This document shows positions 2,798 to 58,293 of a DNA stretch of 64,000 nucleotides, piece after piece (position 1 is the first letter of the stretch; every line of letters begins with the position of its first letter). Source of the stretch: a virus (Duplodnaviria > Caudoviricetes); the IMG/VR virus record IMGVR_UViG_3300034685_000067, positions 3,973 through 67,972 of that record; one strand, written 5' to 3'. The notes below the pieces were generated by a model that was not told the origin of the DNA, did not search any database, and worked only from the letters and a program-made list of their open reading frames with translations. The position numbers were made by a program, and so were the translations under genes.

Positions 2798-4027
2798 ATG
2801 CCTGATGCAGATGTTAAACAAAGTGCATTTGATATAAAAGCAGAGTTTAAATTTACTAAGACTTCTCTTGTTTTGCAAGAAGAGATTCTTGAAGTTGCAT
2901 TTATCATGCAGAATCATAAATTAGTGCCACGTATGAAAATGAACTTTAGAATTGATAATAGATATAGAAATTTACTCCTTATGCCTTATACTGTCCACGT
3001 TATTATTGTTGAAAAGAATATGGGTGAAACAGAAAGAACTTTAATAGATAGTGAATGGTTGAGTTTTGGTCAAGCTGTGATTGATATACATAGAGAAGCA
3101 GATTTATCTTCCAGACCAGATGTAATAAATGTTAGGCATGAATATGTTGCTAAAGACGCATATACTGGTGTTAATACTGTTGTTGGTGGTCTTTATGAGA
3201 ATGTTAAAGTTATAGATGTTATTAATAGTCTATGGTCAAAAACAAATCATGGAAAATTAAGATTAAATGTATCCAAATTAGATAATTCTGAGAAATATGA
3301 ACAGATATGGATACCAAATAATAAGTTCTTTGTCAATTTAGCATATATATCTCAACGATATGGAATGTTCAATATTCCCCCTATTATTTATACTAATTTA
3401 CATGATAATGTAGCATATATTAAATCCTTAAACGAAGCAACATCAGATAAAGCTCTGGAATTATATGGTGATTTACCACAAGAAGATCAAGATAAAATAA
3501 GGATAGATGATGGACAGTATTTTTTGCCAAATCTTCCTTCATTAACAAATTCATTTAATAGTATTGCTGCACTCATTCCAAAGAAAATAACACTATGCAA
3601 AAAAAGTGATACTGGTTTGTATAAAGAAAGTGAAATAGATGTAATGAGTTTAATACGTTCTATGAAGTTTGTAGATAGTGTTGATTCGTTTGAAAATTAT
3701 TTGGACAAAATAGTACAACCAAATACTAAAATATACCTAGATCAGAGTAATGAATATTCTTTAAGAGAAAGTATAGCTTCTATAATATTGAATACAGTTA
3801 AACCTATATCTGTTCGTATTTCCCAACCTTTTAGATTTCCACATTGGTATATAGGCAGAAAAGTTGTATTGAAATATAAGCATATAAACTATAAAATAGG
3901 AAGTGAAATAACGTTTTTTATATCAGGTATTCAATTTAATATCAAACGAACTAAGGTCAAAAATGCACAAGGTGCTATAAATGTAATGTTAAATGCAGTA
4001 TCTACTCATGATTCATATGTTGGATAG
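2798..4027 (+). CDS. Hypothetical structural protein, possibly baseplate-hub-like
   Basis: 409-aa beta-rich ORF coupled to the upstream stop (TAAT ATG). Size and C-terminal IGRKV..F.I.GI.F pattern recall gp27/gpD-type hubs (weak). Confidence 0.4.
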   Translation: MPDADVKQSAFDIKAEFKFTKTSLVLQEEILEVAFIMQNHKLVPRMKMNFRIDNRYRNLLLMPYTVHVIIVEKNMGETERTLIDSEWLSFGQAVIDIHREADLSSRPDVINVRHEYVAKDAYTGVNTVVGGLYENVKVIDVINSLWSKTNHGKLRLNVSKLDNSEKYEQIWIPNNKFFVNLAYISQRYGMFNIPPIIYTNLHDNVAYIKSLNEATSDKALELYGDLPQEDQDKIRIDDGQYFLPNLPSLTNSFNSIAALIPKKITLCKKSDTGLYKESEIDVMSLIRSMKFVDSVDSFENYLDKIVQPNTKIYLDQSNEYSLRESIASIILNTVKPISVRISQPFRFPHWYIGRKVVLKYKHINYKIGSEITFFISGIQFNIKRTKVKNAQGAINVMLNAVSTHDSYVG

Positions 4028-38400: not shown

Positions 38401-39495
38401 TTGTTTATAATAGAAAATATTATTACTGAGCAATGTACTCTTATGTGTCGTTATTGTTACATGAATAACAATCCTTTATATATGAGCAAAGAAACATTTA
38501 AAGTTATTCTAGATAATCTAGATAATATATTGAATATATACAATCAATCACAGTATCATCTAGATTTCTTTGGAGGAGAACCATTATTAAACTTCGACTT
38601 AATTGAATATGCAGTTCCACTATTACAACATGATAAAAGATGTGAATCATTTGGTATAATATCCAATCTTCTTGAATTGGATGAAAACAAAGTATCATTT
38701 ATTAAAAATAATAATATAAATGTAAGCTTTAGCTTTGATGGTTTATGGAATGAATATAATAGACCATTAAGAAATGGTACAAGTTCATTACAGTATTATG
38801 AGAAGAAAAAAGACTTGATTAAGATGATATCACCATCTTATTGTAAAACAATGGTATCACCTACTTCATTGGGTACATTGGTTGAAAATGCAAGATATCT
38901 TGCAGATGTTTGGGGTTTTTCAAATATAGATTATTCACTAGTCAGAGATGATATATGGTCAGAAGATGATATCAATAAATTTAAAAATGAGATAAGAGAT
39001 CTATCTAATTTACAGATTGAATTCTTTAAAACAGGTAAAGATGTTATAATTGGATTTTATGAATTATATCTACTTGATATGTTTATAGGATATAAGGATG
39101 GAAAAAGACCATTTGGTTGCTTTGCTGGTAGTAGAGGAATAGGCATTCTGCCCAATGGCGTTGCTTATCCCTGTGCAAGATTTGCTACAAATAGAGAATA
39201 TCCAATTTATGATTTTAATACTAATCATCTTTATAAGGAGAACTTTGATATTTTTACTGATCCTCTGGTATCTAATCCAAGAAACTTTAATAAGTGTCAG
39301 CAATGTACTTATTATGTAGGATGTAATGCTGGTTGCACATATTCTCAAATGAAGAATAATAACAATCCAGTTGCATCTATTTGCAAATTGTATGATATAA
39401 TTTATACAGAATGTTTTTATGTATTTAACAATCTTAAAGATAATAAATTATTTATAGAAAAATTAAATAAACGATTAAATAATCTAGGAGGTTAA
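38401..39495 (+). CDS. Radical SAM/SPASM protein (peptide/protein maturase type), rSAM-1
   Basis: CTLMCRYC, FFGGEPLL, SFDG; SPASM CFAG...YPC...CQQC..CNAGC...C. Confidence 0.92.
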   Translation: MFIIENIITEQCTLMCRYCYMNNNPLYMSKETFKVILDNLDNILNIYNQSQYHLDFFGGEPLLNFDLIEYAVPLLQHDKRCESFGIISNLLELDENKVSFIKNNNINVSFSFDGLWNEYNRPLRNGTSSLQYYEKKKDLIKMISPSYCKTMVSPTSLGTLVENARYLADVWGFSNIDYSLVRDDIWSEDDINKFKNEIRDLSNLQIEFFKTGKDVIIGFYELYLLDMFIGYKDGKRPFGCFAGSRGIGILPNGVAYPCARFATNREYPIYDFNTNHLYKENFDIFTDPLVSNPRNFNKCQQCTYYVGCNAGCTYSQMKNNNNPVASICKLYDIIYTECFYVFNNLKDNKLFIEKLNKRLNNLGG

Positions 39496-39501
39496 ATTAT
39501 T

Positions 39502-39816
39502 ATGTTGGATAACAATGTAATCCAGTTTAATTTATTTAATGCTGTTGAACATATTGTTGAAAGTATGAAGTTTCTTGATTATCTCATTAAGAATGATGAG
39601 GATAGTGGAAGGCAAGAAACATATGCTAATGCAATGTATAATCTTCAAATATGTGGAGATAAACTGTGTGATCTTGGAGAAATATTAATAGGAAATAAGA
39701 TAGTTCTACCTGATAAAGATCAACCAGTTGATCAACAAATTATAGAATATATTGATAAAATTCAGGAGAAAATTAAAATAAGAAAAGAAGAACATCAAGA
39801 TGGAGAACACAACTAA
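39502..39816 (+). CDS. Small helical accessory protein
   Basis: 104-aa ORF with AGGAGG SD between two radical SAM genes. Confidence 0.6.
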   Translation: MLDNNVIQFNLFNAVEHIVESMKFLDYLIKNDEDSGRQETYANAMYNLQICGDKLCDLGEILIGNKIVLPDKDQPVDQQIIEYIDKIQEKIKIRKEEHQDGEHN

Positions 39817-40612
39817 TGTTATTTATATAACCTCAAACTGTAATTTAAAGTGTGAATATTGTTTTGAAGAAGAGAAAAGACCAAATAGAACTATGACATA
39901 TGATGATATAGATAGATATTTTGAAGGAATAGATAAAATATCAGCACCTCATTCTCATATAGTCTTATTTGGTGGTGAACCATTATTATATCCAGATTTA
40001 ATAGAATATATTGTAATAGATAAGATACTTAAACAATATGACTATAAACAATATTCTGTTTCAATGACATCCAATGGTTTGAGATTATTAGAAGATGATA
40101 TTTATAATTGGTTTTTTGATCTGAGAAAAAAGAAATATATACATTTAGAAATAAGTTATGATGGACCTAATTGTTACAGACGTAAGGATAAAAATGGAAA
40201 TTGTGTAAATAATTTAATAGAAAAAGTATTGAACAAATTAAATAATGATAATAGAACTTTTGCCATATCTTATACTTTAAACAAAGATAATTATAATTAT
40301 TGCATTGAAGATGTTATTACATTGTTTGAGACATATGATCATCTGGAAAAAATAATATTAAGTATAGCTAGTCAAGATTTGGATGTTATAGACAATGATT
40401 ATCAAAGATCTGTATTGAGATTGAAACCTTATTTAAATGAGATATATAGAAGATATAGAAAACCCATTTGTGAAGAAGTATGTGATGTATGTCAAAAATG
40501 TGTTTTTAATAATAAGAACTTGTATGCTGTGCCTAATGTACCTTATCCAATAGAACATTCTAAATTTGCAAATGAAGATTTCTCATTATGGGAGTATTGT
40601 CATGAAAGATAA
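39800..40612 (+). CDS. Radical SAM protein with a short Cys-rich tail, rSAM-2
   Basis: CNLKCEYC, LFGGEPLL, TSNG, ISYDG; C-terminal CEEVCDVCQKC. Confidence 0.9.
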   Translation: MENTTNVIYITSNCNLKCEYCFEEEKRPNRTMTYDDIDRYFEGIDKISAPHSHIVLFGGEPLLYPDLIEYIVIDKILKQYDYKQYSVSMTSNGLRLLEDDIYNWFFDLRKKKYIHLEISYDGPNCYRRKDKNGNCVNNLIEKVLNKLNNDNRTFAISYTLNKDNYNYCIEDVITLFETYDHLEKIILSIASQDLDVIDNDYQRSVLRLKPYLNEIYRRYRKPICEEVCDVCQKCVFNNKNLYAVPNVPYPIEHSKFANEDFSLWEYCHER

Positions 40613-41744
40613 ATTATATACCATTTTCATCAATATGACAGATAGATGCAATTTCAATTGTAAATACTGCTTTGAAAAGGATATACATTCTTCTCATATA
40701 TTATCTCAAGATGCAGCAAAGAGTATAACTGAATTTGTAGGAAGATTATTAAATTCTCAATTTTATATATCGAATTACAATGGTATATTGATAAATTTCT
40801 TTGGTGGAGAACCAACTCTTAATCATATGGCCTTAAAATATATAGTTGACTATTTTAAACATAATGATAATATCTTCTTCTCCACTATAACTAATGGCTA
40901 CAAGATAAATATATTACAAGATATATTTAAAGATATCAAAGATTATATGATAAATAATGCATTCAAAACACATATTCAAATATCATATGATGGTTATCCT
41001 GTTCATGATATGACACGTCTTGATGTTAAAGGTAATCCAACTGGTGATATTATCTATAATAATATCAAAACAATGATAAGTGATGGTTATAATATCTCTA
41101 CTAAGTCAGTCATTACTCCAGATACATTTAAGTATATGCCAGAAGCCTATTTGGATATACGTAAACTATTGAATGATCATGGAAATTATTTTCCAACTAT
41201 AGATTATTATACTGAATATGAAAATGGTTATAAATTACAAGAACTTGAAGATGCTCTTTTAGAAATTGCTCCTTATGAAATAGATTACTTTAATCAATAT
41301 CATAAGTTCTTCTTTACATGGTTTGAACCAAATAATAATCATATCTGTGCTGCAGGTAAAGATGTAATAGGTATAGATACTAACTTAAATATATATCCAT
41401 GTGAAGGTTGTTTCTCTAATAATAAAGGGGAACATTTAATAGGAACTATCTTTGAAAAAGATATAATAGATAAATTAATTGAAAGAAAACATTATCATGA
41501 AGAGTTTGAATATAGGACCCCTGTTTGTGTAGATTGTGATACAACTACATGTTTTAAGTGTAATGTGATGAAATATAAAGTTTCATCCAAAAATGACTAT
41601 TTGAATAGATGGTATGATTATACCAATCAAGATTGGTTGTGCACATATTATAAGACAATAGGTAAGATTAAAAGAGCAGTTTTTAATCTTTTAAATAAAG
41701 GAGATGTGTATAATATTGGATCGAAATGTAGACTTGATTCTTAG
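40602..41744 (+). CDS. Radical SAM/SPASM protein, rSAM-3
   Basis: CNFNCKYC, FFGGEPTL, ISYDG; CAAG...YPC.GC...CVDC...CFKC...C. GGAG SD favours the ATG at 40602. Confidence 0.92.
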   Translation: MKDKLYTIFINMTDRCNFNCKYCFEKDIHSSHILSQDAAKSITEFVGRLLNSQFYISNYNGILINFFGGEPTLNHMALKYIVDYFKHNDNIFFSTITNGYKINILQDIFKDIKDYMINNAFKTHIQISYDGYPVHDMTRLDVKGNPTGDIIYNNIKTMISDGYNISTKSVITPDTFKYMPEAYLDIRKLLNDHGNYFPTIDYYTEYENGYKLQELEDALLEIAPYEIDYFNQYHKFFFTWFEPNNNHICAAGKDVIGIDTNLNIYPCEGCFSNNKGEHLIGTIFEKDIIDKLIERKHYHEEFEYRTPVCVDCDTTTCFKCNVMKYKVSSKNDYLNRWYDYTNQDWLCTYYKTIGKIKRAVFNLLNKGDVYNIGSKCRLDS

Positions 41745-42218: not shown

Positions 42219-42770
42219 ATGGGTACTTTAATTAGAAATATCACTCCACCATGTCCATCCAATTATGGTCCAGGTGGTGATGGACACCCATGTACCAGTA
42301 ATTTGACACCATGGACACAACCATCTGATCTTACCACTGCTACTATTCTAGCACAACATTTAAATGAACTTAGAGATGCTATTAGACGTGAACAAGCTAG
42401 ACGACAGATATCTCAAACAGATTTTGGTGCAAATGTTGCATCTTCTAATTTAATTACAGCAGCACATTGGTCTGCAATTAGAAATGCAATAAATACATTA
42501 AAAACATTTTCATGGTCATCATCTGTACCTACTACAGGTAATATCATACAAGCAGCACAAGCAAACGAATATAGAGCTAAAATAAATGATGCTGAAGACG
42601 ATTGTTTATGTCATTGCAATTACTGTACTTGTAATTGTAATTATTGTACTTGTAATTGCAATTACTGTACTTGTAATTGCAATTATTGTACATGTGTCTG
42701 TAATTATAGATGTACTTGTAATTGTAATTATTCTGATGCAAGGCTCAAATATGATATCTTATATATTTAA
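42219..42770 (+). CDS. Fibre-like protein with a C-terminal (CNYCTCN)n Cys-rich tract and a terminal S74 cleavage motif; candidate radical SAM substrate
   Basis: Three I.A.h.ne.R..I repeats, then 18 Cys in 43 aa, then SDARLKYDILYI-stop; AGGAG SD. Confidence 0.8.
   Translation: MGTLIRNITPPCPSNYGPGGDGHPCTSNLTPWTQPSDLTTATILAQHLNELRDAIRREQARRQISQTDFGANVASSNLITAAHWSAIRNAINTLKTFSWSSSVPTTGNIIQAAQANEYRAKINDAEDDCLCHCNYCTCNCNYCTCNCNYCTCNCNYCTCVCNYRCTCNCNYSDARLKYDILYI
42615..42731 (+). repeat. 21-bp tandem repeat (about 5.5 copies) encoding CNYCTCN
   Basis: TGYAATTAYTGTACTTGTAAT units varying mostly at synonymous positions; one N-to-V change and one Arg insertion. Confidence 0.95.
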
Positions 42771-42802
42771 TATGATTTTAATCAGATAAAACTGGAGTGA
42801 TA

Positions 42803-43093
42803 ATGATGAATGATGAAAATGATTTGGGCTTAAGTTTTATTACACAATTAAAACCATGTATTTTTAAATATAAGAACTGTAATGATAACAGAAAACATAT
42901 AGGATTTATAGCTCAAGATATCTTAAAGTTATTGCCAGAAAATGAATATGCTGTTATTATGAGAGATGAGAATGGATTCTATATGATTAATTATAGTGAA
43001 TTGATTGCACCACTTGTAAAAGCAGTTCAAGAATTAAATATAAAAGTACAAGAATTAGAAGAACAATTAAAAAGATATGGAGATGGTAAATAA
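42803..43093 (+). CDS. Stand-alone peptidase-S74/intramolecular-chaperone body lacking the SDxRLK motif
   Basis: LGLSFITQLKPCIFKYK...HIGFIAQDI...INYSELIAPLVKAVQEL plus coiled coil; own GGAG SD at 42794. Confidence 0.88.
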   Translation: MMNDENDLGLSFITQLKPCIFKYKNCNDNRKHIGFIAQDILKLLPENEYAVIMRDENGFYMINYSELIAPLVKAVQELNIKVQELEEQLKRYGDGK

Positions 43094-43815
43094 TGAGATT
43101 ACTATTTAATGTGGCTGATAGAGGAGATAAGTATGAGGTTATCAGTATAAATACAAATGAAATAGCCTATGCTGGTATGAGAGATGATATTTTAGAAGTA
43201 CCATCATGGGAAGTATATGAGACAGTAGCTAGGAATCTAAATGAAGGTAAAAAAGTATATATACCTAAATTATTAGATCAATTTTTGGATGTCTCTGATT
43301 TAGTAATAGAAGAATTGGATCCATTAGATACTGCTAAACAAACTGCTATAATAAAAGCAAGAGATATAATATATACTACCAGAATTAATAAGTTAGCTAT
43401 AGCAAAATTTTATAGATTTTTTATCCTAAGTCATTACTTTGCTGATAAAGGTATATTTATAACTGATGAAAACAGAGAAAGTAAATATCTGGAAGTTATT
43501 AATTCAGCAGCACAACTGACAGATCCAGAAGCATCTGAAGAAATGATTGCCAATCTTGAAGAGTATATTAATCTGTTAGATAATCTGGCTGAAATAAAGA
43601 ATATTTTAAAAGATTTAGATAAATTTATTGAATCAGTTAATGAAATAACATTAATATCAATGGAAGAATTGGAAGCTAGAGCAAGTTTACAGGGCACTTC
43701 AGAATCTCCTGTAGATCCATTATCAACTAAGATGGAAAATGAATTTGTAACTGAAGAGGAAGCTATTGATGCTGTAAACAATTTATATATAGCATTTGCT
43801 GATCAATATAAATAA
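43093..43815 (+). CDS. Hypothetical acidic protein, possibly fibre-assembly-like
   Basis: 240 aa with TAATG coupling to the S74 gene; LDTAKQTAI helix recalls fibre-assembly proteins (weak). Confidence 0.45.
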   Translation: MRLLFNVADRGDKYEVISINTNEIAYAGMRDDILEVPSWEVYETVARNLNEGKKVYIPKLLDQFLDVSDLVIEELDPLDTAKQTAIIKARDIIYTTRINKLAIAKFYRFFILSHYFADKGIFITDENRESKYLEVINSAAQLTDPEASEEMIANLEEYINLLDNLAEIKNILKDLDKFIESVNEITLISMEELEARASLQGTSESPVDPLSTKMENEFVTEEEAIDAVNNLYIAFADQYK

Positions 43816-47315: not shown

Positions 47316-48329
47316 GTGAGTATTATTAACATATATCTATTATATAATTGTGCAGACCCAACATTACGTTGCAGTGATTTTCTATTCATGGATCTTGCCA
47401 AAAATTACCCATCTAATAATTATATAATAATTCCATCAGACTATTCATATCAAAAATTATATCCTTGGACTGGTTATGATGATATCTATAAACAACATTA
47501 TAACCTAGAGTATAAATTTAACTATTATAATCCAGATGAAATGTCTATTATTGACAGTATAATATTTTCTAATGCTCTTCCATATATTGTAACCAACAAT
47601 ATACCTATCAATAATGTTATCATATTAGATGATGGTACATTAGAACGTCTTTATTTTATTAATGATCGTACTAAATTAGAGTTGTATTTAAATTATATAA
47701 AAAACAATCTAATAATTATTGGAAATAAAAACTTTTACAACATCATAAAGGACAAGTATAACATAAAGAATATTATACAATCTGAGTTCAAAATTGATTT
47801 TAGCAGGTTAAATAATATTGTACCAACATCTAACTATAATTGCATGAGTGCCATGGAGAATGAAGATTGTATACCATACATAGATGCTATACTTAACTCA
47901 GGCACAATAAAATGTGATACATTATATCTCACAGATAGATATTTCAAAGTATCAGATATGAAACAACTTAAGATTATAAAACTATATGCTGATTTAAAAA
48001 TGAATAAACGTGTTAAGTTAATTGAGTCAAAATATTTACAATCAAATATAGAACAATGCTATGCTTATGTGTATTTCAGATATGATTCTGAATATAGCTT
48101 CATGGTGAGATCTGTATGGGAATTCTTCTATACAGACAGATACATGTATTGGATGAGAAAAAACAATCAAACAAATGACCTTGATGGGTTTAATTATTAT
48201 ATAAAGTATGTCACAAACAAATCAAGTGAAGAATATTCCAATAAATTATTTACTGTTGACAAGAGATTAATTGAAGATAAAATGCAATTAGATCCAAATA
48301 GTTATTTCTTAGGAGAATACTTAAAATGA
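47316..48329 (+). CDS. Divergent GT-B-like protein (same family)
   Basis: FKIDFSRL; RSVWEFFYTDRYMYW...DLDGFNYYI matches the family C-terminal motif. Confidence 0.45.
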   Translation: MSIINIYLLYNCADPTLRCSDFLFMDLAKNYPSNNYIIIPSDYSYQKLYPWTGYDDIYKQHYNLEYKFNYYNPDEMSIIDSIIFSNALPYIVTNNIPINNVIILDDGTLERLYFINDRTKLELYLNYIKNNLIIIGNKNFYNIIKDKYNIKNIIQSEFKIDFSRLNNIVPTSNYNCMSAMENEDCIPYIDAILNSGTIKCDTLYLTDRYFKVSDMKQLKIIKLYADLKMNKRVKLIESKYLQSNIEQCYAYVYFRYDSEYSFMVRSVWEFFYTDRYMYWMRKNNQTNDLDGFNYYIKYVTNKSSEEYSNKLFTVDKRLIEDKMQLDPNSYFLGEYLK

Positions 48330-49213
48330 AAGTGTATAATATAGGTATATTATTAACAAGACAATGTAATCAGCATTGCTATTACTGTGATGTATATAAA
48401 CAATATAATAATGAACAAATAGAAGTTGATTTGGATTATTTACAGTATGTAATATCTTTGTATGGTAATATACCATTACATATAGAGATATCTGGTGGTG
48501 AACCTGGACTTGTAAATAATTTTGAAGAAATTGTCACTAAATTACTATCCAGAAAAAATATTATTAAAATGTCTTTACTGAGTAATGGCTTATGTAGAAA
48601 GAAATACAATATTCTTGAATTATTTGGCAAAAAATTAAATTACTATCAGGAACATAGTATGTTGGACATAGTTGGTACTGACTGTTTGTATTTTGAGCCA
48701 GAAAATGAGATATTAGAAGATTGGATGGAACAGACAATAGTGTTGACAGATACAACTTTAAATTCATTGTTAAATAATTTTGAATATTTTGAGTCTATAG
48801 ATTTCTTTAAATCAAACAGATATTTTAAGAGTATAACACCCAAGAAAGAAACTTTAAAAGCTGATATAGATAAGTTATTATTATTCTTTAATAAAATAAA
48901 ACAATATAATACCTTATATCTATATGGAGAAATGCACCAATATTTACCAAGAACAGATACCAGATCTTTATGTGCCCAATATTCATATAATCCATTTATA
49001 GATGTAGATGCTAAAAAGTTGAGACACTGCAGTATGCAGGTTGATAAGTCTGCTTCTTATGATATAACGCCAGAAAATATACAATTATCTTTAAATGGAA
49101 AATTGTTTAAATATCAGCCATATTGTAGTATATGTTATAAATATTCTGCAAACAGCCCCAAGTTTGCTATGAGTGCTATAAAAGATAAAGAATATTATAA
49201 CTTGGAGATATAA
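48326..49213 (+). CDS. Radical SAM protein with Twitch-like C-terminal cysteines, rSAM-4
   Basis: CNQHCYYC, SGGEPG, SNG; LC...HC...CSIC. Confidence 0.9.
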   Translation: MKVYNIGILLTRQCNQHCYYCDVYKQYNNEQIEVDLDYLQYVISLYGNIPLHIEISGGEPGLVNNFEEIVTKLLSRKNIIKMSLLSNGLCRKKYNILELFGKKLNYYQEHSMLDIVGTDCLYFEPENEILEDWMEQTIVLTDTTLNSLLNNFEYFESIDFFKSNRYFKSITPKKETLKADIDKLLLFFNKIKQYNTLYLYGEMHQYLPRTDTRSLCAQYSYNPFIDVDAKKLRHCSMQVDKSASYDITPENIQLSLNGKLFKYQPYCSICYKYSANSPKFAMSAIKDKEYYNLEI

Positions 49214-49215
49214 AA

Positions 49216-50085
49216 ATGCAAATGCAAAGATCTTTTCAGATATATTTAACCAACAAATGTCAATGGCATTGTTCTTATTGCCATATATGGAAGCTTCCAC
49301 AGCAATCATATCAAAAATATTTAATTGATATATATTTACCCAGATTGGTAGCACATTGCAAGCATACTAATGACAAGATTTTACTTATGGGTGGAGAAGT
49401 TGGTATGCTTAACTATGATGAGATGGATTATGTATTATCATTTATTAAAGAATCTGATGTTCCTGTTGAAATATATACTAATGGCCTTTTCCTAAAAAAG
49501 AATTATCATAAAATAAAAGGTATCAATTATACTTTCATATCATATCATATCTGTGAAGATATATTAAATGATAACACTCCAGATATATATGATTATTCAG
49601 ATCAGATACCAATTAAATATTGCATAGTTGTACATAAAAATAACTTACATAAATTAGATGATTTCCTTTCTTCACATAAACATTTGTCAAGTATAGAATT
49701 AAAATGTTATATTGCACATTCACAAACTGATGACAATATGAATCTATCTAAAGAAGATATTGATTATATTACAATGTTAAGCAATAAATATCCAAATATA
49801 GATCATGAATATATTTCAAGAGCGCAAAACACATTAAGTAATACATATAAACAGATGTGTTCTTCCATGTTGTATGTAACAAGATTAGATTTTGTTAAAG
49901 GTGAAATATATAAATGTGGTTGTGGTGTTACTGATTTATCACCATCTGTAGAATTAAACAATGATAACTTTGAAGATATAGTTGTTAATAGAAAAAATAT
50001 ATATCCAAAAGATGATATATGTTCATACTGTAACAGACCTTCTATAGTTGATATTAAAGAATATTTAAATTTGAGGAAACAATAA
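49216..50085 (+). CDS. Radical SAM protein (Twitch-like), rSAM-5
   Basis: CQWHCSYC, MGGEVG, YTNG; C...KCGC...CSYC. Confidence 0.9.
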   Translation: MQMQRSFQIYLTNKCQWHCSYCHIWKLPQQSYQKYLIDIYLPRLVAHCKHTNDKILLMGGEVGMLNYDEMDYVLSFIKESDVPVEIYTNGLFLKKNYHKIKGINYTFISYHICEDILNDNTPDIYDYSDQIPIKYCIVVHKNNLHKLDDFLSSHKHLSSIELKCYIAHSQTDDNMNLSKEDIDYITMLSNKYPNIDHEYISRAQNTLSNTYKQMCSSMLYVTRLDFVKGEIYKCGCGVTDLSPSVELNNDNFEDIVVNRKNIYPKDDICSYCNRPSIVDIKEYLNLRKQ

Positions 50086-50089
50086 TAAT

Positions 50090-50881
50090 ATGTTTACTGA
50101 AAGAAAACAATGTCCCTTATGTAGAAGTCATCAACTGGAACAAATATATGAATATAAAGCTGATAATAGTTACTATGATTTTGTGACTTCATTGTTCAAC
50201 AATTATATATCAGATGTTGATATACCTGATTACATATTGTGTAAATGTAAAGATTGTCATACTTTATTTCAGAAATATATATTATCCAAAGAATATGAGG
50301 ATTATTTTTATATGCATGTATTTCATAAATTACCTCAATTTGAACAAGATAAGGAAAGCGTTAAAGATTGCTATTATTTTGCAACAAAGGAACTAGATAT
50401 AATAAATAATTTAGCCAATTCTAAACAATGTTACATTCTTGATTTTGGAGCAATGTATGGCCAATTTGGAAAATATATATCAATGTATAATCATAAAGTG
50501 GATTCCTTTGATATTATGATTGATAATGATCATCATATAAACACCTTAAATAATAATTATGATATCATTAGAAGTAAAGATACTTTATCACATATACAGA
50601 ATAATTTATACATAACTATTAGTAATTTAGTTAAAAGATTAAATAACAATGGATATCTAATTATTGTGGATTATTTTGTTAATAAATATATAGATTATAA
50701 TTATACTACTAAAGCACTCTTACCTTTCTGGCATACTCAGATGTTTGATATTAATTCATTCACTAAATTTGGATTAAAATTAAAAATGGAATATCCTTTT
50801 TCAATTGGAAAACATCAAATACTTGATATGAAAGTAGATAAAAACACTAGGTATATTGTATATGAAAAGATTACAAGTTAA
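50090..50881 (+). CDS. Class I SAM-dependent methyltransferase with an N-terminal Zn ribbon
   Basis: CPLC...CKDC; ILDFGAMYG; YDII..DTLSHI; LNNNGYLII; P.WH. Confidence 0.8.
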   Translation: MFTERKQCPLCRSHQLEQIYEYKADNSYYDFVTSLFNNYISDVDIPDYILCKCKDCHTLFQKYILSKEYEDYFYMHVFHKLPQFEQDKESVKDCYYFATKELDIINNLANSKQCYILDFGAMYGQFGKYISMYNHKVDSFDIMIDNDHHINTLNNNYDIIRSKDTLSHIQNNLYITISNLVKRLNNNGYLIIVDYFVNKYIDYNYTTKALLPFWHTQMFDINSFTKFGLKLKMEYPFSIGKHQILDMKVDKNTRYIVYEKITS

Positions 50882-51713
50882 ACCAAGATATTTTTCAGTA
50901 TATATAACACATGAATGTAACTGGCACTGCTCTTACTGCCATAATGCTAATGAGCATTATGATTATAATATAGATCAAATAATATATAATGTTAATATGA
51001 TTAAACCATATCTTGATAAAGCAGAGGTATTATGTTTGACTGGTGGTGAGCCAGGATTAGTACCAGAAGATATATTAAGATATGTGTTAAATTCAACTAA
51101 TAATAAATGGACTATATGTACTAATGGTACTTTTATTAAGAATAACTATCATAAGTTATTTGAGAAGAATATTAAAAAGATATATTATCATGCCATAAAA
51201 GATTTGACAGAATCTTCTCAATTTATAAAATATGATGTTTTAAATATTGTATATTATGTTATAATAAATAACGATAATATACAATATTTAAATAAATTTA
51301 TCCAAACAAATCAGGATATAATTATAGCACCAAAAGTAGAACACCCAAGGGTTAAGAAAGATATAGATATTGAAAATATAATTCAGTTATATGATATAAT
51401 AAATGAATATAGTAATATATGTCCAGATAGAAAACATCAAATAGCAGAAATAATACATAACTATCAATCAGCTTCAAATAATATATGCAGATTGTATAAT
51501 AAGAACTATGGCTTTGATTTAATAAAAAATAAAATATATAGATGCTGTTTAACAGATAAAGACATAGCAAGCATTCCATTAAATAAGGATAATGTTGATT
51601 ACATATTTAATAGCAGAGATAATAATATATTTGGAATCAAAGATGATTTCTGTGATAGATGTAATAGATATGATATGATGTCAAATATACAGAAGGAGTT
51701 GTATACATTATGA
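50856..51713 (+). CDS. Radical SAM protein (Twitch-like), rSAM-6
   Basis: CNWHCSYC, TGGEPG, TNG; C...RCC...CDRC. Confidence 0.9.
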   Translation: MYMKRLQVKPRYFSVYITHECNWHCSYCHNANEHYDYNIDQIIYNVNMIKPYLDKAEVLCLTGGEPGLVPEDILRYVLNSTNNKWTICTNGTFIKNNYHKLFEKNIKKIYYHAIKDLTESSQFIKYDVLNIVYYVIINNDNIQYLNKFIQTNQDIIIAPKVEHPRVKKDIDIENIIQLYDIINEYSNICPDRKHQIAEIIHNYQSASNNICRLYNKNYGFDLIKNKIYRCCLTDKDIASIPLNKDNVDYIFNSRDNNIFGIKDDFCDRCNRYDMMSNIQKELYTL

Positions 51714-52771
51714 AATTGTATAGCACTAATGAATGGGGAAAATTAAGGGAAGTAATAATTGGAAATGTAGAAGATACTTATGTGCCTAAATTCTTTCACA
51801 ATCCAAGATTTAATGACAGATTTATATTCTCTGACAGAGGCAATTTCAATATTCATAAAACCATAAAAAGGAAATTTGATAATAGTAAGAATGTTACTTT
51901 AAATGATGTGAATATGATAGATAAACAAATACTAGAAGAACGTAGAGAAGATGTTGAGAATTTATGTGAAATATTAAGAAAAGAGCATATATCTGTCTTG
52001 CGTCCCAAATTGTTAAATGGTATACAAACTGTAAAGACACCATATTGGGAATCATTAACTCTTCCTGCACATAATGTAAGAGATTTGGTTTTGATAGTTA
52101 AAGATATGATAATAGAAACGCCTGTTATGAATACATTTAGATATTTTGAAACAGATTTATTTAAAGATATATTTTATGAATACTTTAAAAATGGATGTAA
52201 ATGGATATCTGCACCAAAACCAACGTTGCAGTATATAGATGAGCATGATTTTGAAGATGATAATATTAAAGATACAAATGAAGCTGAAATTCTATTTGAT
52301 GCAGCACAGATATTAAGATTTGGTGATAAATTATTATTTAATGTATCAACCAAGCATAATTATATGGGATATTTATGGCTCAAATCTATATTACAGGATA
52401 AGTTTGAAATATATCCTGTAGAAAGAATCTGTTATACCCATATAGATGGTGCACTAATGCCATTAGAAGATGGGGTTGTATTATATGATCCAATAAAAAT
52501 GACTAAAGATAATCTAGATAAGCTTCCTGACTGGTTGAAAAAATGGAAATTTATACCAGCACAGGATGATAATGATATGGAACGTTATACTGGTACTAAT
52601 GTTCTAGTATTAGGTGATAAAAAGATTATTATAAATGCTGCTTCAACTGAATTGATTAAAAAATTGGATTCTCTTGGATATACGTGTATTCCAGTACAAT
52701 TACGTCATAATAGGATGTTTGTTGGAGCATTTCATTGTATTTCTTTAGATACAGTGAGAGATGATGTCTAA
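51710..52771 (+). CDS. Amidinotransferase (glycine/inosamine-phosphate amidinotransferase family)
   Basis: NEWGKLREVIIG, RD, R.FE, FDAA..LRFG, HID, N.L and terminal GAFHCISLD (Asp-His-Cys triad). Confidence 0.9.
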   Translation: MKLYSTNEWGKLREVIIGNVEDTYVPKFFHNPRFNDRFIFSDRGNFNIHKTIKRKFDNSKNVTLNDVNMIDKQILEERREDVENLCEILRKEHISVLRPKLLNGIQTVKTPYWESLTLPAHNVRDLVLIVKDMIIETPVMNTFRYFETDLFKDIFYEYFKNGCKWISAPKPTLQYIDEHDFEDDNIKDTNEAEILFDAAQILRFGDKLLFNVSTKHNYMGYLWLKSILQDKFEIYPVERICYTHIDGALMPLEDGVVLYDPIKMTKDNLDKLPDWLKKWKFIPAQDDNDMERYTGTNVLVLGDKKIIINAASTELIKKLDSLGYTCIPVQLRHNRMFVGAFHCISLDTVRDDV

Positions 52772-53669
52772 ACTATATTTATATAATAATGAATCTTTAA
52801 GTACTTACTATATACCACAAATAAGTTTCAATTTAACACTTTCATGCAATAGAAAATGCACTTATTGTTATGTTGGTAATAATCCACGTAATACTACAAT
52901 GTCTTTACAATCATTTAAATATATTGTTGATATGATTAATGATATGGATATTATGTATAACATTCATATATTGGGTGGAGAACCAACTATATTAGATAAT
53001 TTGGTAGATTATATTCAATATTTGCAGTCAGATAATATTAATGAAATAGTCATTATGTCTAATGGATATAGACCTGATGACTATTTCATTCCATTTGAAA
53101 AGATATCTAAATTACATATGAAGTTTACTTATCATCCAGAATATTGTACTCCACAAGAATTTCTAGATAAATGTATATCTATGAACTCTATGGCTTTTAA
53201 GTTTTCAACAATTATAATGGTTTATTCAGAACAGTATTTGAATGATGCACTATGGTTATATAATAAATTAAAAGAGGTAAATGTAAGTACATATATAAAA
53301 ATAGTACATAATGATGATTATACACTTTTATTAGATATGATAAAACAGTATATTGATGAAACTGATTATCCTATATTATATCTTAAAACTGATGAATGTA
53401 TTTATAAAGAGATTAAACCACAGATATATGTTGACAATATGTTTTATTATGGAAGTTTTTATAATTGGTATTGTAAGAAATATAGTATGATTGATATAAT
53501 GCCAGATACAATGTTAAAATTGTCTTGTTCAAGAGATGTTCTAATGCGTTCAGCATTAAGTAAAGCATTCTGGTCTTGGTATAGATCAAATTATAATAAG
53601 TATTATACATGTACTAATGCATATTGTTCATATTGTGCATCTGAAATACCAAAATATGTAGAGTTATAA
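52761..53669 (+). CDS. Radical SAM protein, rSAM-7
   Basis: CNRKCTYC, LGGEPT, SNG, TYHPE; C...C...C....C..C tail. Confidence 0.9.
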   Translation: MMSKLYLYNNESLSTYYIPQISFNLTLSCNRKCTYCYVGNNPRNTTMSLQSFKYIVDMINDMDIMYNIHILGGEPTILDNLVDYIQYLQSDNINEIVIMSNGYRPDDYFIPFEKISKLHMKFTYHPEYCTPQEFLDKCISMNSMAFKFSTIIMVYSEQYLNDALWLYNKLKEVNVSTYIKIVHNDDYTLLLDMIKQYIDETDYPILYLKTDECIYKEIKPQIYVDNMFYYGSFYNWYCKKYSMIDIMPDTMLKLSCSRDVLMRSALSKAFWSWYRSNYNKYYTCTNAYCSYCASEIPKYVEL

Positions 53670-53670
53670 T

Positions 53671-54564
53671 ATGATAGACATATTACATGTAGCAGATAAT
53701 AGAAATATAAGTGGTACGTTCACATCATTGATAGATGTGTATTATAATCTATTAAACAATAATTATACTAATGTTAAATTACATATTTTATGCTATACAG
53801 ATATATTAAATGTGTTTAAACTATATCAGTCATTTATTAAGACCTTCTGTCCTAATGTAGGTATTTCATATCATCATATAAATCAATTTGATAGTATTAA
53901 AACAGATATATTGATAACCACAACAGAATTATTGTCATTTTATTATATGCACTCTAATTATATTCCCAAATTAAATTATAATAAGTTTATAGTGCTTGAT
54001 TCTGCTGGATTTTATCAATCATATGAAGAAGAACAGTTTAAAGATTGTTTCAGAGTAATACCAAATGATGCTATAATATTATGTAATAAAGCTAATCTTA
54101 AATTATCTCCATGGAAGAATTCATATGAATATTATATTAAATTGTCAGAAGATAGATTAAGTATATTAAAACAATATAGCGTACCTATTTCTAATGATAG
54201 ATTAAAATCATCATATTATATACCAATTGATGCTAAATATGTTTATAATGATTTAAAGAAACAAAAGATTTTGACAACTGATATATATAAAGTGTATGAA
54301 GTTCACTTTTGCAGAAGATATTTATCAAGTACTGGAACATATAGTGAGAATATAGGCAAATTAATATTTGAAATGATATGGTTGGACAGACCAGTATATT
54401 ACTATAGTAAACCAAAGACATTTGATGATGGATTACATTATTATCTTCAATTATTTAACGTAGATGATAATAAGGATCAGCTATTATCTATAACCAAGGA
54501 AGACATTGAAGATAAATTATTTATACATGATGATGATCTTTTATATAAAATAATAGAGGATTGA
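53671..54564 (+). CDS. Divergent GT-B-like protein (same family)
   Basis: ISGTFTSLIDVYY; ENIGKLIFEMIWLDRPVYY...DDGLHYYLQLFNVDDN. Confidence 0.5.
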   Translation: MIDILHVADNRNISGTFTSLIDVYYNLLNNNYTNVKLHILCYTDILNVFKLYQSFIKTFCPNVGISYHHINQFDSIKTDILITTTELLSFYYMHSNYIPKLNYNKFIVLDSAGFYQSYEEEQFKDCFRVIPNDAIILCNKANLKLSPWKNSYEYYIKLSEDRLSILKQYSVPISNDRLKSSYYIPIDAKYVYNDLKKQKILTTDIYKVYEVHFCRRYLSSTGTYSENIGKLIFEMIWLDRPVYYYSKPKTFDDGLHYYLQLFNVDDNKDQLLSITKEDIEDKLFIHDDDLLYKIIED

Positions 54565-54570
54565 TAGTAA

Positions 54571-55506
54571 TTGCATATGTTTAATATTTCAAACAATATT
54601 AAAGAGAAATTTCATTATAGATACAATATACCATATCCTATTCATATGTACAGATATGCTAAAAATGCCAATGAAAGAAGACAATTGTTAAATTATATGA
54701 TAAAATTTAACATATTACCATCTTTAGATATTATATATATTGAAACTATCAATTATTGTAATCTTACATGTAACTTCTGTCCAGTTGGTGAAGGACAAAG
54801 AATAAATAAAGCCACAATGTCAGATGAACTATTTGATCATATATTAAATTTAATTGGACAAATTACAGATAAAAGTAAAGTTACTGTATGTATGAATGGT
54901 CATGGAGAACCACTACTAGATAAAGATATATTTAAGAGAATAAATAAATTAAAACAATTTTATCCACAATTTCGTACTGTATTATTTACTAATACTACTT
55001 TAATACAAGATAGAATAGATGAATTAGTTAAAAGTAAACTAGATTATCTCATGTGTGATTTTTATAATGAAGATGATAAGACTAAATGCTTAGAATTGTT
55101 TAATGAATACAATATTGCTTATAATAAAGCTCTTGATTATTGGGGAAATATTAATAATAGATTAAATGTAAGATATTCTGAAGTATATAATTCAGAAGAG
55201 TCTTTCTATAATAATAGATTAGGTACTGTAAATGTAGGTCCATCTGAAATTATAGATGAACCTTGTATATTTTCATTCATTCAATTACCAATTAATGTAA
55301 ATGGTAATATAAGATACTGCTGTATAGATGCTATGGATAAAACAGTATTTGATAATGTTTTAAACTATAATAATATTTTAGAACTATGGTATAGCAAATT
55401 ATATAATGATATAAGATGTAATTTAAAAGATAGTAAATTAAAAGATACTGCTTGTAGGCAATGTAACAATCATGATTATTTAAAATTTAGATTGATCTAT
55501 ACCTAG
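54571..55506 (+). CDS. Radical SAM/SPASM-Twitch protein, rSAM-8
   Basis: IETINYCNLTCNFC, GHGEPLL, FTN; PC...YCC.D...CRQC. Confidence 0.92.
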   Translation: MHMFNISNNIKEKFHYRYNIPYPIHMYRYAKNANERRQLLNYMIKFNILPSLDIIYIETINYCNLTCNFCPVGEGQRINKATMSDELFDHILNLIGQITDKSKVTVCMNGHGEPLLDKDIFKRINKLKQFYPQFRTVLFTNTTLIQDRIDELVKSKLDYLMCDFYNEDDKTKCLELFNEYNIAYNKALDYWGNINNRLNVRYSEVYNSEESFYNNRLGTVNVGPSEIIDEPCIFSFIQLPINVNGNIRYCCIDAMDKTVFDNVLNYNNILELWYSKLYNDIRCNLKDSKLKDTACRQCNNHDYLKFRLIYT

Positions 55507-55521
55507 AGGAGGAAACATAAA

Positions 55522-57279
55522 GTGACCAAAGTAATTATGCTTGTATCACACGCTGCCTCTTTTAAAGTATTTAATGAGTTGAAACAATATTTGTATGTAA
55601 AAGGGTGTAGTGATATAGATTTATCATATTATTATTTCCCTTTGAGATTTGCATATTATGATAGTAATTACATTATACCAATTTTTCCAAATCATAATAT
55701 AAATGTTCCAGCTATATATAATCATCATGCTATATCTACAGATGTACCTCAAGAAGAGTTATACTTATGTCAGAAATTAGCTGATGTTGTAGAATATTTA
55801 CTCCAAATAACTAGTAATTTTATTAATAATAGACCATTGGATTATAATCTAGAATCTTGTTCATGGACACACAGTAAAAAGTTTGCTCAGTATAAAAAGT
55901 CAAAAATATATGACGCATCAGATATTTTAAGTATTGTTGATAATATACCAAAAGCAGATATATATTTATTTACGCATGCAGAGAATGCTTCTGCAGTAGT
56001 TCAATATTTATTGATATTTAATTTAATTAGAAAATATAATAGTCATGTATTACTTGGTGGTGGAGAAAATTTAAATTATAACAATCCAGAGACAATTTTA
56101 TTAAATAAAATTAGTGAAAACTATTTAGATAACAAATTACATAAATGTTCTGGAGATATAGGACCCACATTGATCAATTTCTTAAATAATAAAGAATATT
56201 CAACATCATATGCTGATATTCATGATTACTTTATTAAACCATGGGTAGTTGATTTTACTCCATATGAACTTCATGAAATTTGTGGTGATACATTATACCT
56301 TTCAACAGTATATGGTTGTTCTGGGCGTTGTCCTTATTGTGTTGGTAGTAATCTTCATCCATATACATCATTGGAAAATTTAGAATATTATAAAGATATA
56401 CTAGAATATATGAGTGATGTATATCCAGAAGTGTCTATTACATTTTTTGATACAGAATTAAACAGAGATAAAGATAGATTTAATACAATGTTAGAGTGGT
56501 TAATACAACATAATATAAAAAATAAGTTGAGTTTCTTTATTAATTTATCACGTTTAGATAAAGATTCATTAAATTTGATAAAACAAATTAATGTAAATTG
56601 TATAAATTCTGCTTTTGATGGTATGTTTGAATATAATGTTCATAGACATTCTATTAGCACTCAAGATGAATTCTCTATAATTAATAATTTAGATTCCTTG
56701 AAAAAAATAGTTTTAAATCAAGGAGGAACTTTAGCATTTAATTCAGTTATGTTTATACCAAATTCATTAGATCTTTTACGATATAGAGATGATCCTTCTT
56801 TTGTAACTAATGTAGCTATGCAGTATGTTAAATATGCTTCTGATTTAGCATTAGATTTTAATTTATATGACCTTAAACTAAATTCTGATATGTATTTTAA
56901 TAAAGACAAATATAATATTAAAGTATTTAATTATCAAAATAAAAAATTTAAAGATTTGCATGATATAGATGATGCTATTAATAATATACCAATATTTTTT
57001 ACATATGATTTGCCTCGTAAAGAAAGAACAAGAATTTTACATCAAATGTTTATGGTATGGAAAAAATATGATTTTTTAACTTTGAATAATATTATGTCTA
57101 GATGTTTTGATAATAAATATAAAAGTAATTTCACTGGTTATAAATCATATAAAAAGTTAGATGAAGATATGAACATTAATGGATATATTGAACTGGCCAG
57201 TTATGTATTGCAGGATATGTTAGATATGTTTGGGCCAAATGATGACATAGTACAATATATTATGTCAAATATAAGATAG
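55522..57279 (+). CDS. Radical SAM protein with an N-terminal B12-binding-like domain, rSAM-9
   Basis: About 250-aa N-extension with VLLGGG, then STVYGCSGRCPYC and FFDTELN, as in class B radical SAM methylases. Confidence 0.7.
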   Translation: MTKVIMLVSHAASFKVFNELKQYLYVKGCSDIDLSYYYFPLRFAYYDSNYIIPIFPNHNINVPAIYNHHAISTDVPQEELYLCQKLADVVEYLLQITSNFINNRPLDYNLESCSWTHSKKFAQYKKSKIYDASDILSIVDNIPKADIYLFTHAENASAVVQYLLIFNLIRKYNSHVLLGGGENLNYNNPETILLNKISENYLDNKLHKCSGDIGPTLINFLNNKEYSTSYADIHDYFIKPWVVDFTPYELHEICGDTLYLSTVYGCSGRCPYCVGSNLHPYTSLENLEYYKDILEYMSDVYPEVSITFFDTELNRDKDRFNTMLEWLIQHNIKNKLSFFINLSRLDKDSLNLIKQINVNCINSAFDGMFEYNVHRHSISTQDEFSIINNLDSLKKIVLNQGGTLAFNSVMFIPNSLDLLRYRDDPSFVTNVAMQYVKYASDLALDFNLYDLKLNSDMYFNKDKYNIKVFNYQNKKFKDLHDIDDAINNIPIFFTYDLPRKERTRILHQMFMVWKKYDFLTLNNIMSRCFDNKYKSNFTGYKSYKKLDEDMNINGYIELASYVLQDMLDMFGPNDDIVQYIMSNIR

Positions 57280-57291
57280 AGATAGACTAAA

Positions 57292-58293
57292 ATGAATAAT
57301 ATAAAATATGCATATGGATTAGATAATGAATATACTTTGACATTAATTATTACAAATCAATGTAATTTACATTGTGATTATTGTTTATATTATGGGCGTG
57401 TTAATGATGTTAACAAGCATTATTTATCTCCAATAGTTGTTAATAATTTTATGGATGTTTATTTTAATGATATAAATAATACGCACCCAATTAATATGGT
57501 TATCTCTGGAGGAGAACCTACTTTATCACCATATTTTCTTGATATTGTTGAATTATGTGCAAATAATTCCTCAGTAAATAATATATTCATATTGACTAAT
57601 GGTCTATGTGATCCAAATATATTTATTAAAGCAAATAGTATAACGAAACAATATAATAAATTATTATTTGTATGTATAAGCATACACATGTCACAAATAA
57701 ATCTAATAGATAAATATATTGAGAAAATAAATTATTTAACATCTAATAATATATATGTAAGAATTAAAGCTATTGTTGATCCAAGTAAGATAAATAAAGA
57801 AACGTTATTATATTTACAATCAAACAATATTGAAATCTCCCCATTATTTGGATCTAATATTACTAGATTTAAACATATACAAGAATTAAACTTATATAAT
57901 TCTGTTAAGAATAAATTATTAATACATTATGATAACAATAGTGAAGAAATATGTTCACTATTTGACATTAGAATACAAAAACATAATCCTTTTAAAGGTT
58001 ATTATTGTACAAGTTCATTTCAGAATATAACTGTTAATGAAGATGGTTATGTATTTTCATCATGTTTTGCAACAAATGGATGTTCATGTTGGTCCAAATC
58101 TAAGCTACAACATTTTAACATTATCATTAAACAGCATAGAAAATGTCTTTTAGATGTATGTAATTGTTATCATCAGCCAATTAGATATAAAGATATTAGC
58201 ATGTTACCATATTTGATAGACAAACAAAAAGAAAATATAGCAGAATATAAAACAATTAAAATATATGATAACAGTGATATAATTTCAAGATGA
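57292..58293 (+). CDS. Radical SAM protein, rSAM-10
   Basis: CNLHCDYC, SGGEPTL, TNG, SIH; FKGYYC...C...C....C.C. Confidence 0.92.
   Translation: MNNIKYAYGLDNEYTLTLIITNQCNLHCDYCLYYGRVNDVNKHYLSPIVVNNFMDVYFNDINNTHPINMVISGGEPTLSPYFLDIVELCANNSSVNNIFILTNGLCDPNIFIKANSITKQYNKLLFVCISIHMSQINLIDKYIEKINYLTSNNIYVRIKAIVDPSKINKETLLYLQSNNIEISPLFGSNITRFKHIQELNLYNSVKNKLLIHYDNNSEEICSLFDIRIQKHNPFKGYYCTSSFQNITVNEDGYVFSSCFATNGCSCWSKSKLQHFNIIIKQHRKCLLDVCNCYHQPIRYKDISMLPYLIDKQKENIAEYKTIKIYDNSDIISR

Follow-up and report, generated by a model that had tools for sequence, protein, structure and literature searches.

The window analysed here is a 64-kilobase stretch of DNA comprising bases 3973-67972 of the IMG/VR virus record IMGVR_UViG_3300034685_000067 (67,972 bp, about 25% complete according to CheckV). 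Two neighbouring open reading frames of this window (ORF1 and ORF2) carry between them the parts of one peptidase-S74 domain. ORF1 encodes a protein with repeated Cys heptads, referred to here as the client, which ends in a 12-residue tag containing the S74 catalytic motif. ORF2 encodes the rest of the domain, referred to as the body, as a separate motif-less protein. The following features are present at the locus.

42219..42770, + strand: ORF1, the client (183 amino acids), with three I.A.H.N.LR..I-type N-terminal segments, Cys heptads, the 12-residue tag and a TAA stop
42603..42731, + strand: six C-x-C-N-Y-C-T-type heptads (21-nucleotide repeats), residues 129-171, ending ...CNCNY
42732..42767, + strand: the 12-residue tag SDARLKYDILYI, corresponding to the first strand of the S74 domain, with putative catalytic Ser172 (42732-42734) and Lys177 (42747-42749)
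42768..42770, + strand: TAA stop of ORF1, located 12 codons past the Ser codon in all 37 of 37 tagged Cys-heptad homologues
42771..42802, + strand: 32-nucleotide spacer with TAA at 42779-42781, GGAG at 42793-42796 and a polymorphic 1-nucleotide deletion at 42792
42803..43093, + strand: ORF2, 96 amino acids from ATG 42803 (98 amino acids from GTG 42797), with GGAG 6 nucleotides upstream of the ATG

The ORF1 product terminates in ...CTCNCNY-SDARLKYDILYI, i.e. ...CTCNCNYSDARLKYDILYI, and is followed directly by the TAA at 42768-42770. Residues 172-177 (SDARLK) form the S-D-x-R-x-K motif of S74 domains, which is present on ORF1 and not on the protein that matches the Pfam family. The consensus of the tag is S-D-x-R-L-K-x-x-I-x-Y-x. 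Ser, Asp and Lys do not vary across the 32 aligned tails, and the tag looks catalytic by this pattern of conservation. The sole change at the nucleophile position among the tails is to Cys. This change occurs in the related locus L137 (around 3100-3186), where CD replaces SD (...CNCAYCDNRLKKNIIYI-stop) and a normal S74 body lies downstream. One to three additional residues stand between the last heptad and SD in L087, L122 and L124. One contig of the RNA-library run X10 contains a 12-nucleotide in-frame insertion at 42729, so that ...CNCNY and SD are four residues further apart.

ORF2 is composed of a short helix, a KPxxFxYK beta-strand, the GFIAQD motif, more strands and a 30-residue C-terminal helix (...DLGLSFITQLKPCIFKYK...HIGFIAQD...YSELIAPLVKAVQELNIKVQELEEQL). 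It matches Pfam Peptidase_S74 (PF13884) with an E value of 2.6e-9 and a score of 37.7 (cut-off 22) over profile positions 16-55 of 58. S74 is its sole family match, and its position just downstream of the client fits the gene order of Tfa/gp38/gp57A-type chaperones, which are encoded separately and required for the folding of fibre trimers. PHROGs gave no Tfa-type match for ORF1 or for the ORF starting at 43093, ORF2 being outside that scan. A profile of ORF2-type proteins matched the PDB entries 8jov (9e-7), 7dc3 (MyRF, 1e-5) and 3gud (GA-1, 2e-4); a PDB search with the single ORF2 sequence returned chance SH3 matches only. The AlphaFold2 model of ORF2 has a predicted local distance difference test (pLDDT) score of 88.8, and its top Foldseek matches are 7dc3 (query-normalised template-modelling score, TMq, 0.72), then 3gud, 3gw6 and 4uw8.

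Joint alignment to four fused S74 domains places the tails at positions 1-12 of the domain. The ORF2-type proteins start at the conserved block that comes next (LGLxF), and the two sets neither overlap nor leave a gap. Since tails and ORF2-type proteins are colinear with the fused domains, the S74 domain is cut cleanly after its first strand. A whole S74 domain on one polypeptide is not found at this locus, where the halves are separated by a stop codon, the 32-nucleotide spacer and a new start codon. An earlier reading made from the letters alone (the sequence-only reading) had described a split S74 domain with the SDxRLK motif on ORF1 and the body in ORF2, and it was correct in every sequence detail it gave.

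The frame of ORF1 past its TAA runs into a TGA at 42798-42800, and the ORF2 frame is closed upstream by the TAA at 42779-42781. No single frameshift can fuse the two genes because of these two stops, as had also been noted in the sequence-only reading. Start candidates after the GGAG are GTG 42797 and ATG 42803/42806, and public gene calls begin ORF2 at ATG (P0003 and P0004 start MMNDEN). The spacer contains no terminator-like site and no strong (at least 10/12) promoter-like match on the + strand, and promoter-like sites are no commoner than in shuffled sequences. The RNA fold of the junction is not unusual (z = 0.11). In a relative with 96% identity (L101), a 1-nucleotide deletion in the spacer shifts the relative frame and leaves both ORFs intact; contigs from other studies are likewise polymorphic for this indel. 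The junction itself, a check of which had been proposed, is present in contigs from four studies, including one RNA library. When four runs were compared, no alternative letter was listed at TAA 42768-42770, a listing that omits 32 weaker differences.

Conservation of the split was examined in the window and 89 related loci from viral and metagenome contigs, which together contain 84 distinct Cys-heptad proteins. In 37 of the 84, the stop follows the SDxxLK Ser at a distance of exactly 12 residues, and never 11 or 13. Six are fused to a short S74 domain, three have the SD motif and a longer C-terminal extension (L133 and L171 look fused), 36 have no S74 motif and two run off the contig. The shared stop position is far above chance, since it recurs in 37 distinct homologues. 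A motif-less S74 body lies directly downstream in 21 of the 37 tagged cases, with gaps of -4 to 62 nucleotides and with the body in relative frame +0 (10 loci), +1 (6 loci) or +2 (5 loci). A survey of homologues for a conserved stop about 12 residues after SD and an adjacent motif-less S74 gene had been suggested beforehand, and it returned this arrangement. The S74 bodies have diverged to 40-56% identity. Four loci (L105, L108, L109 and L119) each contain two tagged paralogues and one body gene. By these comparisons the two halves are conserved and co-occurring, each evidently translated from its own start, and they have been kept separate through long divergence.

Eight untagged Cys-heptad proteins end 0-4 residues past the last CxCNY. 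In six other loci (L131, L149, L159, L162, L165 and L169), the last heptad runs straight into CFLAG(T/S)xV..., e.g. CFLAGTPVL. This sequence resembles what we take to be the start of a Hint/intein-type self-cleaving domain. Four CFLAG-type proteins were scanned against Pfam, and one (L169) gave a weak Vint match under the cut-off. The CFLAG ends may represent a second kind of C-terminal self-processing in the Cys-heptad family.

The stand-alone body is not restricted to these loci. The sequence-only reading had named uniformly fused close homologues as a reason to abandon the split; the closest ORF2 relatives are all stand-alone, with up to 97% identity, then 57-44%. The best longer relatives reach 45% identity and 54 bits, the classes in this comparison being set by length and not by presence of the motif. 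Thirteen clusters of 85-116-residue proteins starting M..GLxFIKKLKP were found by a word-indexed search. When 1.84 billion representatives were searched exhaustively with a profile, 54,366 S74 matches were obtained. Among the best 150 of these, 63 are at most 135 residues long, and 61 of the 63 start with Met. No SDxxxK precedes the body in 56 of the 63, and one more was a false positive of the pattern, so that about 57 clusters (at 50% identity) of motif-less short bodies occur among the best 150.

A tree was built from 173 S74 bodies (rows with more than 25 gaps, 6 of 179, were dropped). The stand-alone state changes 7 times on this tree, compared with a mean of 53.9 in shuffles, and 62 of the 68 stand-alone tips sit within one clade of 86. 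The tree shows clustering and not the number of origins, because its tips are the best matches to a profile that stand-alone proteins were used to build, the domain offers few positions owing to its short length and the tree is rooted at its midpoint. Only two of 80 viral loci with generic S74 domains are short and split, according to a by-eye reading of the motifs. No close stand-alone body was found in the cultured phages of the GenBank phage collection (27 matching records), the best being 42% identical. Two of the 27 were checked: H53 (Vibrio phage VS1) is fused by sequence, and the match in H48 (S-B28) ends one annotated coding sequence of 576 amino acids.

The tag was also searched for on viral contigs with the client left unspecified, using a DNA pattern for the tag followed by TAA. 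This search gave 18 matches, 17 of which are true ORF ends. The 17 tagged ORF ends comprise six Cys-heptad proteins, three T4-like portals and eight other proteins, two of which have an ORF1-like N-terminal region without heptads. An S74 body lies just downstream in 8 of the 17. The tagged portals match Pfam Portal_T4 with E values of about 1e-95. The following tagged T4-like portals (Portal_T4) were recorded.

L188:10839-12461, - strand
L189:657-2312, + strand
L174:533-2161, - strand
L177:9510-9740, + strand
G010:C1:107896-109533

The tag of the portals is placed right behind a conserved C-terminal aromatic residue. Seven of 50 distinct portal C-termini of this clade are tagged, one of them with three additional residues. 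The residue preceding the tag Ser is F, W or Y in all seven, and 33 of the 43 untagged portals end in F, W or Y. The 5-kilobase contig L174 encodes a tagged portal and a second tagged protein. The same 12 residues are found on unrelated proteins including T4-like portals, and by this distribution the tag is evidently portable. Tagged clients escape annotation because Pfam recognises the body only.

Tag and body are not always neighbours. A whole-record scan found one tag and one motif-less body, adjacent, for the window. In record G005 (183 kilobases, 81% complete), the single tag is on a Cys-heptad protein, and the single motif-less body lies 41 kilobases from it. In G010 (162 kilobases, 71% complete), the sole tag-like ORF end is on the portal and the sole S74 body, which is motif-less and stand-alone, lies 85 kilobases off. 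The complete record G009 has the fused form only and no tag. Two tags, located at the contig end, and no body were found in G008, and the fragments of G002, G003 and G011 (3-12% complete) contain tagged portals and no body. Judging from gene content, a single body gene can be enough for several tagged paralogues, or for a client located tens of kilobases from it.

ORF1 itself belongs to a poorly described family. It matches phrog_26958 (unknown function) with an E value of 3.5e-24, the family of Campylobacter phage CPt10_1891. Pfam gave no match for ORF1, tblastn of ORF1 against GenBank phages gave none, and neither ORF1 nor ORF2 was matched in NCBIfam. The protein atlas yielded unnamed viral clusters only; the nearest named cluster, PF27846 at 0.81, is a candidate lead. 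The heptad repeat DNA is 83-87% identical to a 21-bp repeat in CPt10_1891, F379_160 and CP220 CPT_0180. In the accessible text of a 2010 report, the 21-bp repeat of CP220/CPt10 is recorded and no interpretation is offered (PMC2853527). The protein that shares the heptads in the Campylobacter phages CPt10, CP220 and F379 is a hypothetical protein of 534 amino acids with no S74 tag (L002:4125-5729; L003:4151-5755). These three phages also carry 11-12 radical SAM genes.

The window has a G+C content of 27%, and all its ORFs of at least 130 amino acids are on the + strand. According to Pfam and PHROGs, its genes encode baseplate and tail-fibre proteins, then numerous radical SAM enzymes. No tRNA genes were found in the 64-kilobase window. 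It most likely belongs to a large phage of the T4-like or jumbo kind. Subsurface, sludge, biogas and wastewater metagenomes supplied the contigs in which this stretch is found. The genes on either side of the ORF1-ORF2 pair are as follows.

38401..41744, + strand: three radical SAM (SPASM-type) genes and a small ORF (Pfam Radical_SAM, phrog_1802), upstream of ORF1
43093..43815, + strand: downstream neighbour of 240 amino acids with no assigned function (phrog_25260 match)

The best NCBIfam matches of these three radical SAM genes are PapB ranthipeptide and Cxxx-repeat maturases, with every score under the curated cut-off. The enzymes probably modify the Cys heptads of ORF1. A radical SAM/SPASM-like gene is also present upstream in L084, L089, L092, L095, L099 and L100, by a by-eye call on Cys motifs. 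At least seven radical SAM genes occur in the window, within 38401-41744 and 48326-58293. Look-alikes of the 240-residue neighbour come after the S74 body in L084, L089, L095, L098, L099 and L100 (by eye). The 43093-43815 protein and six look-alikes have a ...KG.FIT..NR..KYLE.I..GD... stretch in common.

A complex of three copies each of the last 45 residues of ORF1 and of ORF2 was modelled, a step that had been proposed together with the split. The interface score ipSAE of this 3:3 model was 0.77, compared with 0.03 for the best of three controls; the mark of 0.77 is reached by 58 of 80 solved complexes and by 2 of 110 mismatched pairs. At least 73% of the contacts are shared between runs, and the pLDDT of the partner does not fall below 80. 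The modelled interface lies between residues 31-45 of the 45-residue piece (the tag and three more residues) and ORF2 residues 17-25 (KPCIFKYKN), 32-38 (HIGFIAQ) and 59-65. A putative homotrimer would be in keeping with the 30-residue C-terminal helix in the ORF2 model and with the 3:3 model, which passed its controls.

The peptidase-S74 domain is naturally split over two genes: the client keeps the first strand, with the Ser-Lys dyad, as its tag, and ORF2 supplies the rest of the domain. The two halves probably act by complementation in trans followed by self-cleavage before Ser, a reading that is held with fair but not high confidence. ORF2 would trimerise via its C-terminal helix. Three client tags would insert as the missing strand beside the KPxxFxYK strand, next to GFIAQD, and this insertion would gather three client chains. 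The rebuilt active site would cut the bond before Ser172, leaving the client ending ...CNCNY and releasing the body together with the 12-mer. In the terms applied to MyRF, the tag would be the 'cable' and ORF2 the 'cutter'. The accessible text on MyRF describes a cut between P586 and S587, for which S587 and K592 are essential, and a cleavage-site strand that threads a ring of strands from the neighbouring subunit, as a 'cable' in a 'cutter' (PMC8326128). The position of the cut before Ser is inferred from untagged relatives, which end where it would fall. The tag looks like an add-on to a native C-terminus, and a cut before Ser would restore that terminus, since untagged heptad proteins and portals end there. 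As a speculation, the split may serve the sharing of one body among paralogues, may provide a cheap movable tag of 36 nucleotides or may delay trimerisation until the radical SAM enzymes have acted.

A wider interpretation is put forward more tentatively, and the odds are somewhat against it. The tag and the free body may form a general portable system in T4-like/jumbo phages, in which the tag would be a C-terminal pro-peptide with a catalytic dyad of its own and would cut itself only when a separate trimeric scaffold clamps three tags. Such a system would gather unrelated virion proteins, ranging from Cys-repeat fibres to the portal, and time their release, with one scaffold gene for several clients anywhere in the genome.

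Several points weigh against trans complementation with cleavage. Binding, trimerisation and cleavage are argued from comparison or modelling, and the pass of the 3:3 model indicates likeness, not binding; it may reflect resemblance to solved S74 structures, because the intact form is solved. Custom alignments were used in the complex modelling, so that its calibration holds only roughly, and the model is poor over the Cys repeats (pLDDT about 50). For 16 of the 37 tagged proteins with Cys heptads, no body lies within the stretch retrieved, and in G007 (66% complete) a tag is present and no body was found. In L105:3142-3651 and L108:1142-1600, the S74 body is extended at its C-terminus by Cys heptads of its own, which suggests a lasting joint of two fibre pieces rather than a discarded chaperone. 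The RNA-library contigs over the junction do not prove transcription. The 12-mer might stay bound after the cut, which makes turnover and sharing between clients uncertain. To our knowledge, there is no precedent for a trimeric body serving a dodecameric portal.

Docking without cutting would account for the heptad extensions of the L105 and L108 bodies, which look as if they lengthen the fibre. The tag would then be a permanent strand-insertion peptide, the ORF2 trimer would stay as a cap or joint, and Ser and Lys would be structural. The complex model displays docking only, and stand-alone intramolecular-chaperone (IMC)-like chaperones are proposed as transient fibre caps in the accessible text on Alteromonas phages A5 and V22 (PMC10579305). 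This alternative is nevertheless considered rather unlikely, since S, D and K do not vary in the 32 tails, the only substitute for the nucleophile is Cys, and untagged relatives of both client types terminate at the predicted cut site. F21 and Y23 of ORF2, of which Y23 is nearly invariant, also align with the aromatic positions that MyRF needs for cutting according to the accessible text (PMC8326128).

It is improbable that the tag acts mainly as a recognition (follower) peptide for other machinery, e.g. radical SAM maturases, with ORF2 acting elsewhere or only removing the tag later. The Cys heptads do look like a maturase substrate, three radical SAM/SPASM genes lie directly upstream and similar genes were called by eye in six related loci. 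However, 36 of the 84 Cys-heptad proteins have no tag at all, and the tag corresponds precisely to the strand that the adjacent S74 body lacks. The tag also occurs on portals and other clients that are without heptads by pattern and show nothing similar by Pfam/PHROGs, their neighbourhoods being outside the radical SAM check. An analogy with the follower peptides of ribosomally synthesised and post-translationally modified peptides (RiPPs) had been drawn in the sequence-only reading. It fits only in part. In RiPP processing, maturases bind a recognition peptide, which is then removed by a dedicated protease with its own active site, whereas here Ser and Lys, the catalytic residues, belong to the tag, which is also found on portals and other non-heptad clients.

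Programmed recoding, by readthrough or frameshifting, would yield a fused, ordinary S74 protein acting in cis. The body is in the client's frame in 10 of 21 loci, 0-24 nucleotides past the stop, as recoding would need; it is in frame +1 or +2 in the other 11, and in the window both frames are blocked (TGA 42798 and TAA 42779-42781). The spacer indel alters the relative frame among near-identical phages, the junction RNA fold is ordinary and tag and body are 41 (G005) and 85 kilobases (G010) apart, all of which leaves recoding very unlikely. A recent pseudogene or an assembly error affecting an S74 tail protein of the usual fused type has a negligible probability: split genes on single contigs are often artefacts, but no specific support for this was found here, the junction occurs in contigs of four studies, 37 distinct homologues share the stop with both halves conserved, and the stand-alone state changes far less often on the tree than in shuffles. 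Misassembly, recent pseudogenisation and recoding are excluded as general explanations by the recurrent stop, the independent contigs and the variable frame.

The naturally split S74 domain, as a two-gene system, would offer a direct route to the question of possible folding and cutting in trans and of the share of each half in catalysis. The 12-residue self-removing tag is a possible tool for trimerisation and for traceless C-terminal processing. The tagged portals are the most surprising part of the findings; they suggest uses of S74 beyond trimeric fibres, which would be new for phage assembly if true.

The S74 domain, also called the C-terminal intramolecular chaperone domain (CIMCD or ICA), is a textbook intramolecular chaperone that trimerises via a C-terminal coiled coil and cleaves itself before Ser. 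The S74/ICA members K1F endosialidase (3GW6), GA-1 neck appendage (3GUD), T5 L-shaped tail fibre (4UW8) and MyRF (7DC3) share SDxRLK, KPxxYxYK, GFIAQ(D/E) and the long C-terminal helix with the pair described here. We know of no report of an S74 domain acting in trans, and a search of the full-text literature, with subscription papers outside its coverage, found no description of a split or trans-acting S74 domain or of the CNYCTC repeat. In split inteins and fragmented autoprocessing domains, two separately translated fragments rebuild a self-processing fold by strand complementation, as the S74 pair would do. These systems differ from the S74 pair in that there is no homology and no ligation here, and one fragment has only 12 residues and carries the catalytic dyad. 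The adenovirus protease is activated by the 11-residue C-terminal peptide pVIc of a virion precursor, which is added as a strand. There, the catalytic residues belong to the enzyme and the peptide serves as cofactor, whereas here they are on the peptide; the two systems are not homologous.

Separately encoded IMC-like tail-fibre chaperones have been described in the Alteromonas phages A5 (gp9) and V22 (gp27), with a predicted 3:3 complex at the fibre tip (PMC10579305). Like ORF2, they are small stand-alone proteins with the shape of an intramolecular chaperone, as far as the accessible text describes them (PMC10579305). They make contact via their own strands and the fibre head, and that text, compared here by description and not by sequence, describes no catalytic tag (PMC10579305). 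The two halves reported here jointly have the sequence and fold of an S74 domain and lack its intramolecular arrangement. Known S74 members are single polypeptides that act in cis, whereas here the client carries the first strand with both catalytic residues, and a second gene encodes the remainder. Unlike in the known members, a gene of the ORF2 type can be unlinked from its client, can be common to several paralogues or can have the portal, a non-fibre protein, as its client.

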